IMG/VR virus record: IMGVR_UViG_2690316066_000017 | Span: 1-5,996 of that record | Length of the DNA: 5,996 nt | Direction: 5' to 3' (one strand) | Origin: a virus | Taxonomy: Duplodnaviria > Heunggongvirae > Uroviricota > Caudoviricetes | In this document: piece by piece, positions 1 to 5,996 of the stretch | Position numbering within the stretch: position 1 is the stretch's first letter | How the letters are laid out: every line of letters begins with the position of its first letter | Program-made: the position numbers and the translations under genes | The notes under the pieces: model-generated | Databases searched by the model: none | Seen by the model: the letters and a program-made list of their open reading frames with translations, nothing else | Told to the model about the DNA's origin: nothing

Positions 1-2
1 AG

Positions 3-548
3 TCCTGCATATCCCTGGAAGAAGCACCACCGGCAAAACAGCAGATTGTCTGTAGTCGCAGTTTTGGTGAACGAATCACAGACAAAGATGCCATGCACCA
101 GGCTGTTGTTCAGTATGCTGAGCGGGCCGCAGAGAAACTACGTGGGGAGCGTCAGTATTGCCGGCAGGTGACGACATTTGTACGGACATCCCCCTTTGCA
201 GTAAAAGAACCCTGTTACAGCAATGCCGCTGTGGAAAAGCTTTCATTGCCCACACAGGACAGCCGGGACATTATTGCCGCCGCATGCAGAGCCTTAAACC
301 ATGTCTGGCGTGAAGGGTACCGCTATATGAAGGCAGGAGTCATGCTGGCTGATTTCACACCATCGGGTATAGCGCAGCCGGGATTATTTGATGAAATCCA
401 GCCCCGTAAAAACAGTGAAAAGTTAATGAAAACACTCGATGAACTGAACCAGTCGGGAAAAGGGAAAGTGTGGTTTGCGGGGCGAGGAACCGCCCCTGAA
501 TGGCAAATGAAACAGGAAATGCTATCGCCTTCGTATACAACACAATAG
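3..548 (+). CDS. umuC: Y-family translesion DNA polymerase, UmuC/MucB/ImpB/SamB family, C-terminal part (5' end lies outside the window)
   Basis: The reading frame is open from position 3 with no stop before TAG at 546-548; the ORF-track start at 93 is only the first internal Met. The translation (...WFAGRGTAPEWQMKQEMLSPSYTTQ) matches the conserved C-terminal region of UmuC-type proteins as I recall them. No umuD-like gene is visible because the upstream region is outside the window. Confidence 0.85.
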   Translation, partial: SCISLEEAPPAKQQIVCSRSFGERITDKDAMHQAVVQYAERAAEKLRGERQYCRQVTTFVRTSPFAVKEPCYSNAAVEKLSLPTQDSRDIIAAACRALNHVWREGYRYMKAGVMLADFTPSGIAQPGLFDEIQPRKNSEKLMKTLDELNQSGKGKVWFAGRGTAPEWQMKQEMLSPSYTTQ

Positions 549-568
549 ACTGAGATCCCCATTGCTTC

Positions 569-586
569 ATTCTGATATATCAGAAT
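569..586. terminator. 18-bp perfect palindrome (attctgatatatcagaat) followed by a T6 run (589-594) between convergent umuC and stbB; possible weak intrinsic terminator for the + strand transcript
   Basis: Perfect dyad seen directly in the sequence: 7-bp AT-rich stem, 4-nt loop, then aaTTTTTT on the + strand. It overlaps the last codons and stop of stbB (580-582). Confidence 0.3.
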
Positions 587-972
587 AATTTTTTCATTTT
601 AAGACGCACATCATTCATTGCCTCCTGCACCGAATCAGTAGCAGAAGGAGGCATTTTTTCAGCAAATTGCGAAGCACCGAGTTCAGTCAACACAGCTCTG
701 ATATCGGCCTGAGAAGGCTTCCATCCAGTCGTCTGACTGAGTAAGGTTACAACCTGATCTGCTGAAAACTCCTCGCTCAAAATGGCAGTCAGCAATACAG
801 GCAGGCGAGGATCAAGTTGGTGTAACGCCATTCCAGAAATAAATGCATTCCGGAACAGCTCACCACGCTCAGAACGCGGAACGGACTCTATCGCTTCCAA
901 AGTTTGAAAGTCTGCAGCTTTTTCCGGATGCAGATAAAGTGTGTATTTTTTCCTTTTCCGTTCATCGTCCAC
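580..972 (-). CDS. stbB: StbB/ParR-like partition adaptor protein (DNA-binding partner of StbA)
   Basis: Sits immediately downstream of the ParM-like gene in the same orientation, the classic parM-parR order. It is a small protein with a basic N-terminus. The ORF track begins at a TTG at 1008, overlapping stbA by 32 nt; I prefer GTG at 972-970, which lies 4 nt after the stbA stop and is preceded by a strong SD (AAGAGGAG, 7-nt spacer). Stop is TGA at 580-582. Confidence 0.6.
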   Translation of the reverse strand: MDDERKRKKYTLYLHPEKAADFQTLEAIESVPRSERGELFRNAFISGMALHQLDPRLPVLLTAILSEEFSADQVVTLLSQTTGWKPSQADIRAVLTELGASQFAEKMPPSATDSVQEAMNDVRLKMKKLF

Positions 973-976
973 AATA

Positions 977-1948
977 TTACTCCTCTTTGAAAGCCGCGAT
1001 AGCTTCAACCAGTGCTGTCTGTGGCGACTCCATCATCACTACTTTTTGCCCAAGATGGTGCCATGCCGTTTTTATCGAATCATAGATCAACGGGGCCCCA
1101 CCACCGACAACATAAACACGATTCACATGATGGAAATCACCGAGCTCATTGACTACTTGCTCCCCCAAACTGGCAATAGCCCCCTCAATGGTATTAAGGA
1201 CCAGATCAGTTTTTGTTTCGTCATTTATAACCTGCCGAACAAAGTCCGGGTCATTACGACGTTTAATCAATTCATCTGCAACGAGGAAACTGGTATCACT
1301 GGATGCCATGCGCAATGCACTCATTGCAGCTTTCGTAACTGAAGATACACCAATGCCAGAATTACCATGAATGGCACTTACAGAGTCAAATTGACCAACG
1401 ATAACACCAACATCAAGCGTAGTGCCGCCAATATCAACTACCAGCGATTTTTCGAACTGACCAACTTTATCCACGACCAGACGAGAAAACACAGCTGGCA
1501 ATGATTCAGGCATCACATCAACGTGTTCAATGGTGAAAACATCGCCTTTATTAAGACGAATCGGCCCCATTAAATTCTCAATTTTACGCTGAATGTTGAG
1601 TTCATTTTTTTGACACTCTTTCGTATAGAACTCACTGATAGGCAAAGTCACAGTCAATGATACAGGCTGAGGCGCTAATCCACTATTCAGTAAAGCGTGA
1701 TGCACAGCTAACAGGTTAACATCCGTATATTGATACTCAATATGAGTCGTAAGAATAGATTGGTTGCTAACTTCATCATACGTGTATTTTTTACCATCCA
1801 GTTCATAGTTAAATGTCTGGCGAATTCCTAACCCGTCAACCTTCCATCCATGACGAAATGAGTTTTGCGACAACGACTTACAGATTTCCCCATTATCATT
1901 CCATGCCAACTTGATTGTTGTTGAACCATCATCGCAGTATACGTTCAT
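977..1948 (-). CDS. stbA: StbA/ParM-family actin-like segregation ATPase (type II plasmid partition)
   Basis: 323 aa. The N-terminus MNVYCDDGSTTIKLAW resembles the ParM phosphate-1 motif (DDGSTxxK), and downstream DIGGTTLD and VVGGGA motifs are typical of the actin/ParM fold. ATG at 1948-1946 is preceded by AAGGGG SD; stop is TAA at 979-977. Confidence 0.85.
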   Translation of the reverse strand: MNVYCDDGSTTIKLAWNDNGEICKSLSQNSFRHGWKVDGLGIRQTFNYELDGKKYTYDEVSNQSILTTHIEYQYTDVNLLAVHHALLNSGLAPQPVSLTVTLPISEFYTKECQKNELNIQRKIENLMGPIRLNKGDVFTIEHVDVMPESLPAVFSRLVVDKVGQFEKSLVVDIGGTTLDVGVIVGQFDSVSAIHGNSGIGVSSVTKAAMSALRMASSDTSFLVADELIKRRNDPDFVRQVINDETKTDLVLNTIEGAIASLGEQVVNELGDFHHVNRVYVVGGGAPLIYDSIKTAWHHLGQKVVMMESPQTALVEAIAAFKEE

Positions 1949-1961
1949 CTATAGCCCCTTA

Positions 1962-2019
1962 AATACTCAATCTGAGTAAATCATTGTTTCTGGTTGCAAT
2001 GTAATACTCAATTTGAGCA
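1962..2019. repeat. Two copies of a 15-bp palindromic element (AATACTCAATcTGAG at 1962-1976 and AATACTCAATtTGAG at 2003-2017), 41 bp apart, in the stbA leader
   Basis: Direct repeat with one mismatch, seen in the sequence. Each copy contains an inverted repeat (tactca-N3-tgagta; the second arm of copy 2 is tgagca). Operator- or centromere-like geometry upstream of stbA. Confidence 0.6.
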
Positions 2020-2076
2020 CTATCATAGTTATGAAATCACAAAACACAAGTATTATTTATTACATCACATGACACA

Positions 2077-2097
2077 CTTCATATTTCATACTTCATA
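2077..2097. repeat. Three tandem heptamers (CTTCATA TTTCATA CTTCATA); a related 9-mer CATACTTCA recurs at 2087-2095 and 2145-2153
   Basis: Counted directly in the sequence. The repeats flank the 2112-2136 dyad. Iteron-like, possible ParR/StbB binding (parC-like) or repressor sites. Confidence 0.5.
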
Positions 2098-2111
2098 AAT
2101 ATGAACACATA

Positions 2112-2140
2112 TTGACACCTCAGGTTACCGTGTCAAAATA
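2112..2140. promoter_or_regulatory. Inverted repeat TTGACAC-N11-GTGTCAA giving consensus -35 hexamers (TTGACA) on both strands; candidate promoter/operator for the parA-like gene (+) and/or stbAB (-)
   Basis: TTGACA at 2112-2117 (+) and its mirror at 2136-2131 (-). A weak -10-like caaaat at 2134-2139, with TG at 2131-2132, lies 16 bp downstream on the + strand. SD GAGG at 2168-2171 precedes the ATG at 2177. Confidence 0.35.
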
Positions 2141-2176
2141 TCATCATACTTCACACATCATATTTATGAGGTTGCA

Positions 2177-2416
2177 ATGATTACTGTAGTTGGTGGGAAC
2201 AAAGGTGGTTCAGGGAAAACTACCATTGCATCAAACCTGGCTATTGCTCTAGCAAATAAAGGAAGGGAAGTCTGCCTGTTAAACGGAGATCTACAACGAA
2301 CAGCCGCAAAACATCATGCGGAACGAGAAGCTGCAGGACTGTTACCAGCAATAACCCTTGTTGAGAAATTTGATATGCTGATATCAAAGCTGCTGTCATT
2401 GTTGATGTCTGCATAA
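2177..2416 (+). pseudogene. N-terminal fragment of a ParA/MinD-superfamily Walker-type ATPase (type I partition-like), truncated at the junction with P2-like DNA
   Basis: Begins MITVVGGNKGGSGKTT, a deviant Walker A motif (KGGxGKT) at the extreme N-terminus as in small ParA proteins. The ORF is only 79 aa, whereas ParA proteins are roughly 200 aa or more. Its 3' end overlaps the oppositely oriented R fragment, and composition shifts to GC-rich near 2405-2415. Confidence 0.55.
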
Positions 2417-2691
2417 AACGTGAAGCCCTTTTTCTGGCCTTCGTCGGTGGTCATGATGTCGGGCTGATTTTCCCGCAGCCACGCCAGCACCGGCACGATG
2501 AGCAGGTCAAAATCACCGGTAAAGTCGGTCACAATGACATTGAGCGTGTAACGCTTTTCAAATGACAGCGACGCCGCCAGTGTGGAGGCAATACTCCCGT
2601 TATCCACGAATATCCGCAGCATCTCGGGACTGGTTTTCAGCACCGTGACGGCATCAGTCAGCGCCCTGCGCAGGCTGTCGGGTTTGAGCAT
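2314..2691 (-). pseudogene. R: P2 gpR-like tail completion protein, N-terminal fragment; the ORF tail downstream of about 2405 is read-through into unrelated AT-rich DNA
   Basis: Occupies the position after lysC in the P2 late-gene order (K-lysA-lysB-lysC-R-S). Starts at ATG 2691-2689 with an AGGA SD. At 125 aa the ORF is shorter than the roughly 155 aa I recall for gpR, and its C-terminal codons overlap the parA-like fragment on the other strand. Confidence 0.5.
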
Positions 2692-2944
2692 CGTTTTCGT
2701 CCTGACAGTGTTTAATCATTTTTACCTGGCTGGCACAGCGCGCCAGCGCGTTCTCAAGCTGCCGGATATCGGCACTTAAATCGCCGTTCGTCTCCGGGGC
2801 GCTGCCCGGCATCGGGCAAAGACTCACTTTCGGGCAGGCGTTGGGGACAATCACTGGCGTCGGTGCAGGCGGGGCGCTGGTGCAACCGGCGCACAGCATC
2901 AGGCAGGTCAGCGCCGTACCAGCGGCGAAAATCTTCGTTTTCAT
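2654..2944 (-). CDS. lysC: Outer-membrane lipoprotein spanin (Rz1/LysC-like o-spanin)
   Basis: 96 aa. Signal peptide with lipobox (…LMLCAG|C) followed by a Pro-rich segment (TSAPPAPTPVIVP), typical of Rz1. Starts in the +1 frame inside lysB and runs past the lysB stop (overlapped spanin architecture). ATG at 2944-2942 has a GAGG SD. Confidence 0.7.
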   Translation of the reverse strand: MKTKIFAAGTALTCLMLCAGCTSAPPAPTPVIVPNACPKVSLCPMPGSAPETNGDLSADIRQLENALARCASQVKMIKHCQDENDAQTRQPAQGAD

Positions 2945-3224
2945 TCAGTAACCTCGTGATGGTTTTCTCGCGCTGTGCTTCACGCTTCGCCGCGTTCTCC
3001 AGTTCCTGACGCAGTGCCACCTGCGCCAGCTCGTTTTTGTCTGCTCTGGTGAGGGCAACATGAAGCTGATTTTTCAGCATGGTGATGGTCGTCTGCTGCC
3101 CGCTGGCGACGTTGTTCGCCCTGTCCAGCGAGGTGCGCAGGCTGGCGTTTTCATGCTTCGCCAGAAACAGACCGGCCACCGCCAGCGATAACAACACGAC
3201 CAGCACAATCATCAGCTTTGACAT
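2754..3224 (-). CDS. lysB: Inner-membrane spanin (Rz/LysB-like i-spanin)
   Basis: N-terminal transmembrane helix (MIVLVVLLSLAVAGLFLA), then a charged, coiled-coil-like periplasmic domain. Lies directly after lysA with an overlapping start. ATG at 3224 has a GAGGGG SD; an alternative ATG at 3212 overlaps the lysA stop as TGATG. Confidence 0.7.
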   Translation of the reverse strand: MSKLMIVLVVLLSLAVAGLFLAKHENASLRTSLDRANNVASGQQTTITMLKNQLHVALTRADKNELAQVALRQELENAAKREAQREKTITRLLNENEDFRRWYGADLPDAVRRLHQRPACTDASDCPQRLPESESLPDAGQRPGDERRFKCRYPAA

Positions 3225-3637
3225 GGTTCCCGCCCCTCAAAACGCTGACGACAGGCCGTACGTATCAGCCGGAAGAACACCGACGCCACGAGGTAAATCA
3301 GCGCAGTAAAAATCCACCCGGCAGCGACCAGCGAGATAAACGTCGCCACCATCACCACCAGAGCCGCCGCCCGTCTGCGCCACGGCACCGGCTGCAAAAA
3401 CAGCGACGTGACAATCTTCACGGCCAGCGATTCCGGCGGCAGCTCCCGCCCGTAGCGTTCAAGTACATACTCGGTGGCATACACGCCGACACCACCGGCA
3501 ACCACACAGATAACCGTCGCCAGAATCGCCCAGGCGGCGACAAAACTGACGGCCACGCTCTGCGGGTAAATCAGGGACAGTGCCAGCATCATCACCAGCG
3601 ACACGTTCAGCATCAGTGAAAGGGATAATTTCTTCAT
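3212..3637 (-). CDS. lysA: LysA-like polytopic membrane protein (lysis-timing accessory, P2 lysA position)
   Basis: 141 aa with about four hydrophobic transmembrane segments, located between the endolysin and the spanins exactly as P2 lysA. GGAG SD lies 8 nt upstream of ATG 3637. Confidence 0.7.
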   Translation of the reverse strand: MKKLSLSLMLNVSLVMMLALSLIYPQSVAVSFVAAWAILATVICVVAGGVGVYATEYVLERYGRELPPESLAVKIVTSLFLQPVPWRRRAAALVVMVATFISLVAAGWIFTALIYLVASVFFRLIRTACRQRFEGREPCQS

Positions 3638-3651
3638 GGTGTTTACTCCGT

Positions 3652-4149
3652 TTAAGCCGGTACGCCGCCAGCGGTACGCCAGACGGTGACCAGTTTTTCC
3701 AGTGAATGCTCACGCTGACCGTAACCGGCACCCGGCAGGGACGCCCAGATATTGCGACAGCGTGAAATGGCGCGCTCAATGCGTCCCGCCCGGATGTCAT
3801 CCAGTGCACCGCGTTCGCGGATCAACTGAATGGCGAGTCTGTCCTGTGACAACGGACTGAAATCCGGCAGGGCAAGCTGTTTGCGGTAGTGCGGCCAGAA
3901 CAGGTAAAGCTGCTGATAGCGACCGGAGGCCGTGGACTTTTCACCGCGACGGTTAAACACCTTCGCCGGTCGGCCATGCGCGAACGGGTGGTCACTGTAG
4001 TCGGTGAAAATTTCCGGCTTCCCGTCCAGTCCGGTGACTATCACGTCATAGCCCCGGTTTTTCGTCAGCGGATGATTTGCCGTCCCTTCGGACACCGCCA
4101 GCATGTCGAGAAAGGCGGCGATATTCTGATGCGTGTTAATTACCGGCAT
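3652..4149 (-). CDS. K: Endolysin, lambda R-type lytic transglycosylase family (P2 gpK-like)
   Basis: 165 aa. N-terminal FLDMLAVSEGT contains the conserved catalytic Glu of lambda-R-type transglycosylases, and C-terminal NIWASLPGAGYGQ is a conserved family block. The start ATG overlaps the holin stop (TAATG). Confidence 0.9.
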   Translation of the reverse strand: MPVINTHQNIAAFLDMLAVSEGTANHPLTKNRGYDVIVTGLDGKPEIFTDYSDHPFAHGRPAKVFNRRGEKSTASGRYQQLYLFWPHYRKQLALPDFSPLSQDRLAIQLIRERGALDDIRAGRIERAISRCRNIWASLPGAGYGQREHSLEKLVTVWRTAGGVPA

Positions 4150-4430
4150 TACGGTTTCCCCCTGCCCTTAAAGCGGCGCTGAATGGCAATCTCAATCACC
4201 TGATAACCGGCGATACCCAGCATGGAGCCGATGCCGCACACCGCAGGCAGTGACAGGTCAGGAAACTGCACCAGAACAACACCGGCAACCATCGAGACAA
4301 AACCACCGAGCAACATGCGCCCGATAAACAGACGCGGGGTGATGGGTTCACCACCGGCAAGCACCTTGCCGACAACAATCAGCACCCCAATCATAAAAAG
4401 CGACAGGACGCTTTTTTCTTCTGCTGTCAT
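4149..4430 (-). CDS. Y: Holin (class I, three transmembrane segments; P2 gpY-like)
   Basis: 93 aa with three hydrophobic segments and a basic C-terminal tail (QRRFKGRGKP). Immediately upstream of the endolysin and translationally coupled to it. GGGAG SD upstream of ATG 4430. Confidence 0.8.
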   Translation of the reverse strand: MTAEEKSVLSLFMIGVLIVVGKVLAGGEPITPRLFIGRMLLGGFVSMVAGVVLVQFPDLSLPAVCGIGSMLGIAGYQVIEIAIQRRFKGRGKP

Positions 4431-4433
4431 GCG

Positions 4434-4637
4434 TTACTCCCACAGATTGACAGTTTCAGCCACGGGCGCGGTCTGAACGTCGGGCAGTTCGACGGCGGTG
4501 CCGTGCGGCAGCACTGCACCCAGTTCAGCCAGTCCCGGATTTGCGGCGAGCACGGCTTCGACCACGCCCTCAGTGCGCCCGTAATACCGGACACAAATGG
4601 CGTCGAGCGTGTCGCCCTGTAGCGCAAAGGTCTTCAT
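4434..4637 (-). CDS. X: P2 gpX-like small tail protein (LysM-like)
   Basis: 67 aa from the internal ATG at 4637-4635 (MKTFALQGDTLDAICVRYYG...), which overlaps the L stop as TGATG. The 90-aa extension in the ORF track would overlap L by 69 nt and is not preferred. Confidence 0.75.
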   Translation of the reverse strand: MKTFALQGDTLDAICVRYYGRTEGVVEAVLAANPGLAELGAVLPHGTAVELPDVQTAPVAETVNLWE

Positions 4638-5146
4638 CAGATTTGACTCACGATGCAGCGCGGTTTGTCCTGGATACGCGCCACCGCCCAGCGCATATCC
4701 CGCCACAGCTCATCAATGGTGCTGTCAATGCTGTCAGCCTTCTTGTCACCTTTCGCACTGGCATCCACGCCGCGATAACGCTCATAAAGCGACGCGGTCG
4801 CCATCGCACACACGGCGCGCTCGTAGTAAAAAACTTTGATGCTTTCACCGTCGATATCGTCCGCCGGGACGTCCGCCAGACACGTAAAACCGGCGGCAAT
4901 TTTCTGTTCGCGGTACTCGTACAGCTCCGCATTTGTCTCCGCCATGCCTGACTTGATGGCCTCACGCAGACGGGCGGGGGCGACGGTCTGCTCAAGGCGC
5001 ATACGTTCCCGGACGCGCTTCGGGTCGATATCGGGAAAAAAGAACGTGTTTTTAATCACCGGCTCGTCGCCTGCCGGTTGCGGGATGACCACCGTACCCT
5101 CACCGGACACGGGAGCCTCCTTTCGCGGAATAATCAGCGTCATCAT
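4637..5146 (-). CDS. L: P2 gpL-like head completion protein
   Basis: 169 aa from the ATG at 5146-5144 (MMTLIIPRKEAP...), preceded by a GAGG SD. The ORF-track start at 5206 adds 20 residues with no SD. Position and size fit P2 gpL. Confidence 0.75.
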   Translation of the reverse strand: MMTLIIPRKEAPVSGEGTVVIPQPAGDEPVIKNTFFFPDIDPKRVRERMRLEQTVAPARLREAIKSGMAETNAELYEYREQKIAAGFTCLADVPADDIDGESIKVFYYERAVCAMATASLYERYRGVDASAKGDKKADSIDSTIDELWRDMRWAVARIQDKPRCIVSQI

Positions 5147-5245
5147 GACTACCTCAGAAAAGTCGGGCGGTGGACGCCGGTGCAGTGTCAGGTGATTCAC
5201 CCTCACTGACCGGCGTGCCGCCCTGGCGCGGGGCGCATTCGGTTG

Positions 5246-5428
5246 TTAACTGGCTTTCTTTTTCGGGCGTCCACGTTTTGCCGGTGTCACGCTCCGGGTC
5301 TTACGCGGGGCGCGGGTGGCCGCTTTGGGCTGCGGCTCCGGCTTCGGTTTCAGCTCCCGCTCCAGTCGTTCAATCTCTTTTTTGACGCCTGCCTGACAGT
5401 CGAGCTGTGTCGCACGTTGCAGGTGAGC
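5246..5428 (-). pseudogene. M: C-terminal fragment of a P2 gpM-like terminase small (endonuclease) subunit, truncated at its 5' side by the junction/ambiguous bases
   Basis: Only about 60 codons remain before the stop at 5246-5248, and the frame enters the N stretch at 5429-5438. Its position upstream of L matches P2 order (O-N-M-L). The C-terminus is very basic with an AT-hook-like KRGRPKKK. Identity as M is inferred from position and memory, not verified. Confidence 0.45.
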
Positions 5429-5438
5429 NNNCNNANNN
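5429..5438. other. Stretch of ambiguous bases (nnncnnannn) exactly at the boundary between P2-like DNA and the fimbrial usher fragment
   Basis: Seen directly in the sequence. GC-rich phage-type sequence lies to the left and AT-rich usher sequence to the right. Confidence 0.95.
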
Positions 5439-5439
5439 G

Positions 5440-5996
5440 CCACGGCCCAATGTTAATTCCCGGTTCCAAACTGGCCCAGAAATTATCTGACGTTGTTTTC
5501 TCATAATGTTGAAATTCTGAATGTCCTGCCTCTACCTGCCAATTTAGCAAAAAAGTTGATATTCCGTCTTCCCATATCAGGTCGGAAGCAACTCCTCTCA
5601 ATGGTGAACGAATTGCTACTTGAGGGATACTAAGCACTAATTTCTGCGCTTCAAACAGAAACTCTTCGGTTGCTTGAGGAATTACAGATAAATCTGCACA
5701 TTGTCTTTCATCTTTTTTTCCATAATGCGAGAGGAAAAGTTTAGGGTATTTCTCTGTCTTCACCCCATAACGCATTAACAACTCCTCACTTAAACAAGCC
5801 TTTAAATAAGGTTTTCCATTACTATGTTCGGCATGGAAAAATATATCCTCTGAACCCACAATAGTTCCATTTAGAAAAATATCGACTGGATAAATGCCGG
5901 GAAGTTGCCCTCCATTTTCAAAAAGAGTTAGGTCTACTCCCTCCCCTCTTCTCTTTAGCAAAGATGCATCGAATGAATATGTCTTTCCATCTGAAT
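5440..5996 (-). pseudogene. Fimbrial usher (PapC/FimD-family outer-membrane usher), N-terminal region; the 5' end lies beyond the window and the 3' end is truncated at about 5440
   Basis: The translation contains the usher N-terminal hallmarks (DLTLFENGGQLPGIYPVDIFLNGT ... LNWQVEAG ... GINIGPW). The reading frame stays open upstream of the ORF-track TTG at 5961 through to the window edge (...SDGKTYSFDAS-LKRRGEG...). Homology stops at the N stretch, after only about 220 codons of a protein that is normally about 800 aa. Confidence 0.75.

Follow-up and report, generated by a model that had tools for sequence, protein, structure and literature searches.

A probable chimeric joint between plasmid partition genes and P2-like late genes in a 5996-bp Escherichia coli contig

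The 5996-bp stretch of DNA analysed here (the window), which makes up the whole of contig CDRY01000017.1 of assembly GCA_001373235.1, contains an abrupt, element-free joint at 2375|2376, where a plasmid gene for a ParA-like ATPase and the P2 tail completion gene R, both truncated at their 3' ends when compared with homologues of 214 and 155 amino acids, are fused tail to tail. We consider that this joint is probably a chimeric join in a draft assembly, arising as an assembly or library artefact, and not a structure present in a living genome. In what follows, we describe the pieces from which the window is built, their native contexts and a second contig that carries the same joint, and weigh the chimeric reading against real recombination, mobile-element insertion and the existence of two naturally short genes.

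Layout of the window and position of the joint

The features of the window are as follows, with strand given as + or − where one applies.

1..548, +, 3' part of umuC, last ~182 codons (annotated as umuC in NZ_CP117007 and pDEC15A-1)
580..972, −, plasmid stability protein StbB / Plasmid_stab_B, 130 aa (annotated relatives)
977..1948, −, parM/stbA actin-like segregation ATPase, 323 aa (open reading frame list and annotated relatives)
1949..2176, intergenic region between the divergently oriented parM and parA-like genes, carrying iterated repeats, both direct and inverted (families D1 and D2; inverted repeats I1-I7)
2177..2375, +, 5' fragment of the gene for a plasmid ParA-like (MinD/ParA P-loop) ATPase, codons 1-66 of 214
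2314..2375, −, foreign tail of the gpR' open reading frame: ~20 codons and a stop in antisense parA-like sequence
2369..2388, composite inverted repeat, arms of 8 bp separated by 4 nt (7 nt from the plasmid, 13 nt from P2)
2375..2376, joint with a 1-nt overlap at A2375 (base-by-base comparison and BLAST ranges)
2376..2416, +, foreign tail of the ParA' open reading frame: 13 codons and a stop in antisense gpR sequence
2376..2691, −, 5' fragment of P2 tail completion gene R, codons 1 to ~105 of 155
2376..5428, −, P2-like late block: R', lysC/lysB, lysA, lysozyme K, holin Y, X, L and the 3' part of M
5429..5438, 'nnncnnannn' join, a superposition consensus of two native continuations
5439..5996, −, part of the AAF usher gene agg3C, internal to that gene and derived from the same plasmid (pDEC15A-1 match)

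The three pieces differ in base composition, with GC contents of 43.9% (plasmid), 58.7% (P2) and 39.8% (agg3C). Position 1 of the window falls in the middle of umuC, and relatives continue collinearly upstream of this point in their native contexts, so that the contig starts in unique sequence and not at a repeat boundary; this start within unique umuC sequence is one of the reasons for favouring a chimeric contig. The same can be said of both ends, positions 1 and 5996 lying inside the unique genes umuC and agg3C, respectively, and not at repeats. Collapsed repeats at the ends of the pieces were also considered but found no support, as there is a single DEC15A plasmid (judged by accession numbering) and each query matched one place only per record.

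Several features of the individual pieces deserve mention in their own right. Between umuC and the stbB-like gene, which converge, there is a 16-nt palindrome, ttctgatatatcagaa (window 560-600); it is native plasmid sequence and probably forms the stem of a bidirectional terminator. The intergenic region at 1949-2176 contains several iterated repeats of ~24 nt (2035-2165), a 15-nt direct repeat (1962/2003) and several inverted repeats, an arrangement that probably marks it as a candidate centromere or operator region. Within the P2 block, the open reading frames for lysB (Rz-like, 156 aa) and lysC (Rz1-like) overlap within 2654-3224, and lysC also overlaps the start of R. The full 156-aa lysB reading frame is open in the window; the identical DEC15A sequence is flagged by RefSeq as an incomplete pseudogene.

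An earlier reading made from the sequence alone (the sequence-only reading) had drawn attention to two short open reading frames meeting head-on in this region, and the open reading frame list agrees with it in detail: the ParA-like frame on the + strand occupies 2177-2416 (79 codons), the R-like frame on the − strand occupies 2314-2691 (125 codons) and their 3' ends overlap on opposite strands at 2314-2416. The change from AT-rich to GC-rich sequence is likewise found about where it had been described, GC in 40-nt windows being 0.38-0.40 up to ~2415-2435 and 0.53-0.65 thereafter. The breakpoint itself, which had been equated with this change and placed at 2405-2415, must be moved 30-40 nt further left, as homology puts it at 2375|2376. 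The visible switch lags behind the breakpoint because the P2 piece opens with 41 nt (2376-2416) in which GC is only 39%.

Base-by-base comparison with the best parents shows that identity to the plasmid extends through A2375 and identity to P2 begins at A2375, leaving a single nucleotide common to both. In megablast searches, plasmid records match to ~2388 and P2 records from 2371/2375 onward, the overrun of the plasmid matches to 2388 reflecting extension across a weak 8-of-15 match. With each side ~100% identical to known sequence up to the same base, the joint is no chance pattern.

The effect on the two genes is clear from alignment of their products with full-length homologues, a check that had been proposed at the outset: neither the 214-aa nor the 155-aa protein aligns across the whole of the corresponding open reading frame, and the last homologous residue can be located on each side. 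ParA' comprises residues 1-66 of the 214-aa protein followed by 13 foreign codons. It retains a deviant Walker A motif (KGGSGKTT, residues 9-16, matching the pattern KGGxxGK[ST]) and is matched over residues 2-53 by the CbiA, AAA_31, ParA and MipZ profiles, but with only 66 of 214 residues it lacks the Walker B region and the C-terminal part and is thus not a complete ATPase fold. gpR' comprises residues 1-107 of the 155-aa DEC15A gpR followed by 18 foreign residues, although the match at residues 106-107 is coincidental, since homology at the DNA level stops inside codon 106. The Pfam profile PF06891 is matched by gpR' with E = 1.1e-38 (132.8 bits) over profile positions 1-107 of 133 only, short of a full-length domain. 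That the two reading frames are natural short genes, with no junction between them, is scarcely credible in the light of these alignments. The mere existence of two open reading frames speaks for such a reading and nothing more does, whereas the homologues are identical as far as residues 66 and 107 and completely different beyond, and at the DNA level the matches to the two parents break off at one and the same base.

Native contexts of the three pieces

All three pieces match one closed genome, that of E. coli O111:H21 DEC15A, accessions NZ_CP077477/8, at ~100% identity. Window 1-2375 corresponds to pDEC15A-1 79047-81421 with a single mismatch (T in place of G at window 2000, in the parM / parA-like intergenic region), window 2376-5428 matches the DEC15A chromosomal P2-like prophage with no mismatches (the next best of 1657 matching genomes reaching 98.8%) and window 5439-5996 matches agg3C on pDEC15A-1, again with no mismatches. 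In DEC15A, the genes for the ParA-like protein (214 aa) and gpR (155 aa) are both intact and lie on different replicons, the plasmid and the chromosome, respectively. That both flanks are found intact in their native settings, at ~100% identity, in a closed genome of the same lineage argues for a chimeric contig. Deletion, one of the causes offered in the sequence-only reading, is excluded as an explanation, as one side comes from a plasmid of the pAA type and the other from a P2-like prophage in the chromosome.

The order of the pieces is also instructive. On native pDEC15A-1, the agg3C and umuC-parA pieces share a strand and the agg3C piece comes first, 4.3 kb upstream of the other, but in the window it follows the P2 block; the order is therefore not that of a simple insertion of P2 sequence into the plasmid, and this too argues for a chimera.

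On the pAA-type IncF plasmids of enteroaggregative E. coli, such as 55989p and pDEC15A-1, the genes are arranged in the order umuDC - stbB - parM / parA-like - integrase - ccdAB. Window 1-2375 shares this gene order and is 99.7-100% identical to these plasmids, but differs from them in that the ParA-like gene ends after codon 66 and in that a downstream 91-aa open reading frame, the integrase gene and ccdAB are missing. Similarly, the P2 block resembles the late region of P2-like (Peduovirus) prophages in its gene order, R-lysCBA-K-Y-X-L-M, and in sequence (97-100% identity) but, unlike those prophages, is cut inside both R and M and lacks the remaining prophage genes (S, V, W, J ... and N, O, P, Q). 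Of the 24 contigs read that carry the exact ParM allele of the window, 22 have it in its native setting, and parM is followed by the 214-aa parA gene, the integrase gene and ccdAB in all five distinct places shown except the sister contig described below. This native parM-parA(214 aa) arrangement in contigs with the exact ParM allele also favours the chimeric reading.

Megablast searches with window 1950-2900 and with the whole window against 72,556 plasmids, 50,697 phages and 5,426 complete E. coli genomes identified no record spanning the joint, and exact scans of the genome and metagenome collections with a 36-mer that crosses it gave no match. In the viral collection, the 36-mer has a single match, a cut of the sister contig. 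Exact-protein look-ups of the two chimeric open reading frames led to one other contig only, CCBW01000004.1 (27,240 bp, assembly GCA_000939035.1). A similar look-up of intact gpL in the same assemblies was uninformative, as the exact gpL protein is too widespread (5268 blocks), and no paper describing either assembly was found in the literature on O111:H21 enteroaggregative E. coli. That none of the other collections searched contains the joint is a further reason for regarding it as a chimera.

Further joints in the window and in a sister contig

A second join is present in the window itself, at 5429-5438. Native P2 gene M continues after 5428 as CAGCGCACCG, native agg3C reads TTTCTGATAC before 5439 and the window has NNNCNNANNN. 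The called bases in 'nnncnnannn' are exactly the two positions at which native P2 and native agg3C agree, and in each case the letter is the right one. The string is thus a position-wise consensus of both native continuations, with no sequence that spans the join, and it looks like a short scaffold gap into which reads from two native loci run. With only the agreeing positions called, it is clear that both native continuations fed the consensus and that the pipeline joined pieces that are not adjacent. The presence of this demonstrably unsupported join in the same contig favours a chimeric origin for the joint at 2375|2376.

The sister contig, CCBW01000004.1, is 100% identical to window 1-4938, with the joint included, and ends at the very base at which the window starts. 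Beyond 4938 the two part company: CCBW01000004.1 leaves P2 inside gpL and continues into recF'-dnaN-dnaA-rpmH-rnpA-yidC-mnmE', 7138 bp that are 100% identical to the E. coli chromosome. The gpL'|recF' joint (4937-4939 of CCBW01000004.1) has a 2-nt overlap and creates a predicted 266-aa RecF-gpL fusion open reading frame. Further on, at 12070-12075, an mnmE'|dgcN joint with an overlap of at most 5 nt leads into dgcN/yfiR. In all, CCBW01000004.1 has three unrelated joints within 12.4 kb and is strung together from unlinked pieces 2.4-7.1 kb long, and it and the window contradict each other at position 4938. A contig so full of unrelated joints, and in conflict with the window, adds to the case for a chimera. 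That both assemblies have the same contig end, at a position that is not a repeat, suggests that data or a pipeline were shared.

Of the causes put forward when the region was first read from sequence alone, then, deletion falls away, misassembly is the best supported and illegitimate recombination is possible but less likely. The source strain belongs to the E. coli O111:H21 (DEC15A-like, enteroaggregative) lineage, which possesses an intact gene for the ParA-like protein on its pAA virulence plasmid and an intact gpR gene in a chromosomal P2-like prophage. If the joint is indeed chimeric, library construction or assembly and scaffolding would have strung together pieces of 2375 bp (plasmid), ~3 kb (P2) and 0.56 kb (agg3C) to give the 5996-bp contig. 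The truncation of the two genes, the overlap of their 3' tails and the 8-bp inverted repeat considered below would then be by-products of butting the pieces together. The clean joint at 2375|2376 would stem from the same process as the N-containing join, candidate sources being a chimeric molecule or read, or a gap-closing step in which neighbours in the scaffold are fused on the strength of a trivial overlap of their ends. A de Bruijn assembler cannot make a join with a 1-nt overlap from non-chimeric reads, so either a chimeric molecule or permissive gap closing has to be assumed, which counts against the chimeric reading.

The window shares a good deal with known draft-assembly misjoins of the inter-replicon kind that are flagged in quality control: the join is abrupt, native contexts are intact elsewhere and genes are truncated on both sides, and to these can be added a scaffold join containing Ns, assemblies that disagree and the lack of the joint in closed genomes. 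Unlike random chimeras, however, the joint contains no N and recurs in two assemblies, which is unusual unless read data or a pipeline were shared. This is the main point to be set against the chimeric reading: a clean, N-free joint is identical in two deposited assemblies and, were the libraries independent, it would be very improbable for an artefact to hit one base twice. A further point, taken up below, is that 7-nt matches near the joints are commoner than expected.

The alternative to be taken most seriously is that the joint is real and arose in the isolate by illegitimate recombination, that is, by homology-independent end joining in which a double-strand end within the plasmid's parA-like gene became joined to one within gpR of the P2-like prophage. 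We regard this as unlikely. According to this scheme, the P2 fragment could have been captured as filler during fusion of plasmid and chromosome at recF; both genes would be inactivated and the plasmid would keep its ParMR/StbAB partition system. The occurrence of the clean joint in both assemblies would point to a real event if the libraries are independent, and the overlaps at the three clean joints (1, 2 and at most 5 nt) are also consistent with end joining. Overlaps of such size are within the range for RecBCD/LigA-dependent alternative end joining in E. coli. The order in the sister contig, dnaN-recF' | P2 fragment | parA'-parM, can be read as an integrated plasmid with filler DNA, and parA-like, gpR and recF are all dispensable genes. 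The scheme requires, however, at least three to four independent non-homologous joints within 27 kb of one genome, truncation of mnmE included, and it has to contend with two assemblies that contradict each other at 4938, with an unsupported join in the same contig, with a closed genome of the lineage in which the arrangement is native and with a joint seen in no other genome, plasmid, phage or metagenome contig searched.

Comparison with alternative (microhomology-poor) end joining or illegitimate recombination in E. coli leads to a similar balance. The blunt-like 1-nt overlap, the unrelated replicons and the lack of a recombinase site are what such a process would leave; the clustering of several joints in one contig, and a joined molecule known from assemblies alone, are not. 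The more specific proposal that a burst of end joining in one O111:H21 isolate fused the pAA plasmid, a fragment of the P2-like prophage and the dnaA-recF region is more doubtful still. Such a burst would mean that the plasmid had integrated and captured prophage DNA as filler, in effect 'shattering and re-ligation' on a small scale in a natural E. coli. Were the joint real, it would represent multi-fragment non-homologous joining of plasmid, prophage and chromosome in a wild pathogen, which is uncommon and would be moderately interesting for how virulence plasmids integrate.

Short repeats at the joints

The 8-bp inverted repeat that had been noticed near the joint, TTTGATAT-N4-ATATCAAA, is present at 2369-2376 / 2381-2388 and its arms are 100% complementary. 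It had been described as lying next to the compositional switch, a description that does not hold: the repeat straddles the joint, with 2369-2375 derived from the plasmid and 2376-2388 from P2. The left arm consists of plasmid bases 2369-2375 and the first base of P2 and the right arm is P2 sequence, so that the repeat exists in neither parent. The comparison with the parents shows that the joint itself created the repeat, which, being composite and in neither parent, cannot be a pre-existing recombination site or the end of an insertion sequence.

When joins between the same parents were simulated at random, 0.4% had a cross-source hairpin of 7 nt or more whose loop did not exceed 10 nt; under a looser definition, which counts every inverted match of 7 nt or more up to 30 nt from the join on either side, the figure is 3.4%. 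We consider the repeat to be probably coincidental and unexplained.

These observations bear directly on the possibility that a mobile element or a site-specific recombinase was responsible, the inverted repeat serving as a terminal repeat or recombination site, a reading to which we give very little weight. In its favour can be cited the perfect repeat at the joint and its low chance probability under the stricter definition (0.4%). Against this, the left arm exists in the plasmid parent only and the right arm in the P2 parent only, and the looser definition raises the chance to 3.4%. The window contains no transposase open reading frame and no insertion sequence end, as had been noted and as the open reading frame list and annotated relatives bear out; nor is there an integrase open reading frame, and base-by-base comparison with the parents identified no target-site duplication at 2375|2376. 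Site-specific prophage integration fares no better, as the joint falls within the R coding sequence, itself in the middle of the late block; the neighbouring genes in the native prophage are those for lysis and the tail, and neither an integrase gene nor an annotated att site is nearby. Mobile-element and site-specific-recombination readings are thus essentially excluded.

Microhomology in register with the joint is limited to 1 nt, compared with 2 nt and at most 5 nt at the joints in the sister contig, values that, with n=3, are indistinguishable from chance. Short matches that are out of register are also present. Near 2375|2376 (2345-2405), an inverted TTTGATA and a direct TTGTTGA are shared between the two sides, neither in register with the breakpoint, and near the gpL'|recF' joint (sister contig 4909-4968) there is a direct CCGCATT, likewise out of register. 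Matches of 7 nt near these two joints are commoner than in simulated random joins (about 3% each), an excess that hints at some sequence-dependent process.

Two possible origins of this kind were examined and rejected. Template-switch schemes, in which a plasmid strand primes on P2 or the reverse, by way of the 7-nt inverted match or of imperfect homology at 2378-2388, were worked through by hand and predict either the opposite orientation or different bases at 2376-2377. An origin in restriction sites or proximity ligation was set aside as there is neither a GATC nor a complete EcoRV site at the joint.

Consequences for database records

If the joint is an artefact it is not a biological feature, and its value is that of a practical warning. 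The 79-aa ParA', the 125-aa gpR' and the 266-aa recF'-gpL fusion would then be false products, and these are on record in the protein collection searched. The joins would provide no evidence for recombination between prophage and plasmid, or for P2 genes on pAA plasmids. In addition, a cut of the sister contig is listed in IMG/VR as a 'viral' contig. This record, IMGVR_UViG_2657245634_000021, is a cut of CCBW01000004.1 made at gene boundaries, from the start of dnaN to the end of the contig; it contains dnaN, recF', P2 late genes and plasmid partition genes, and is a false provirus call.
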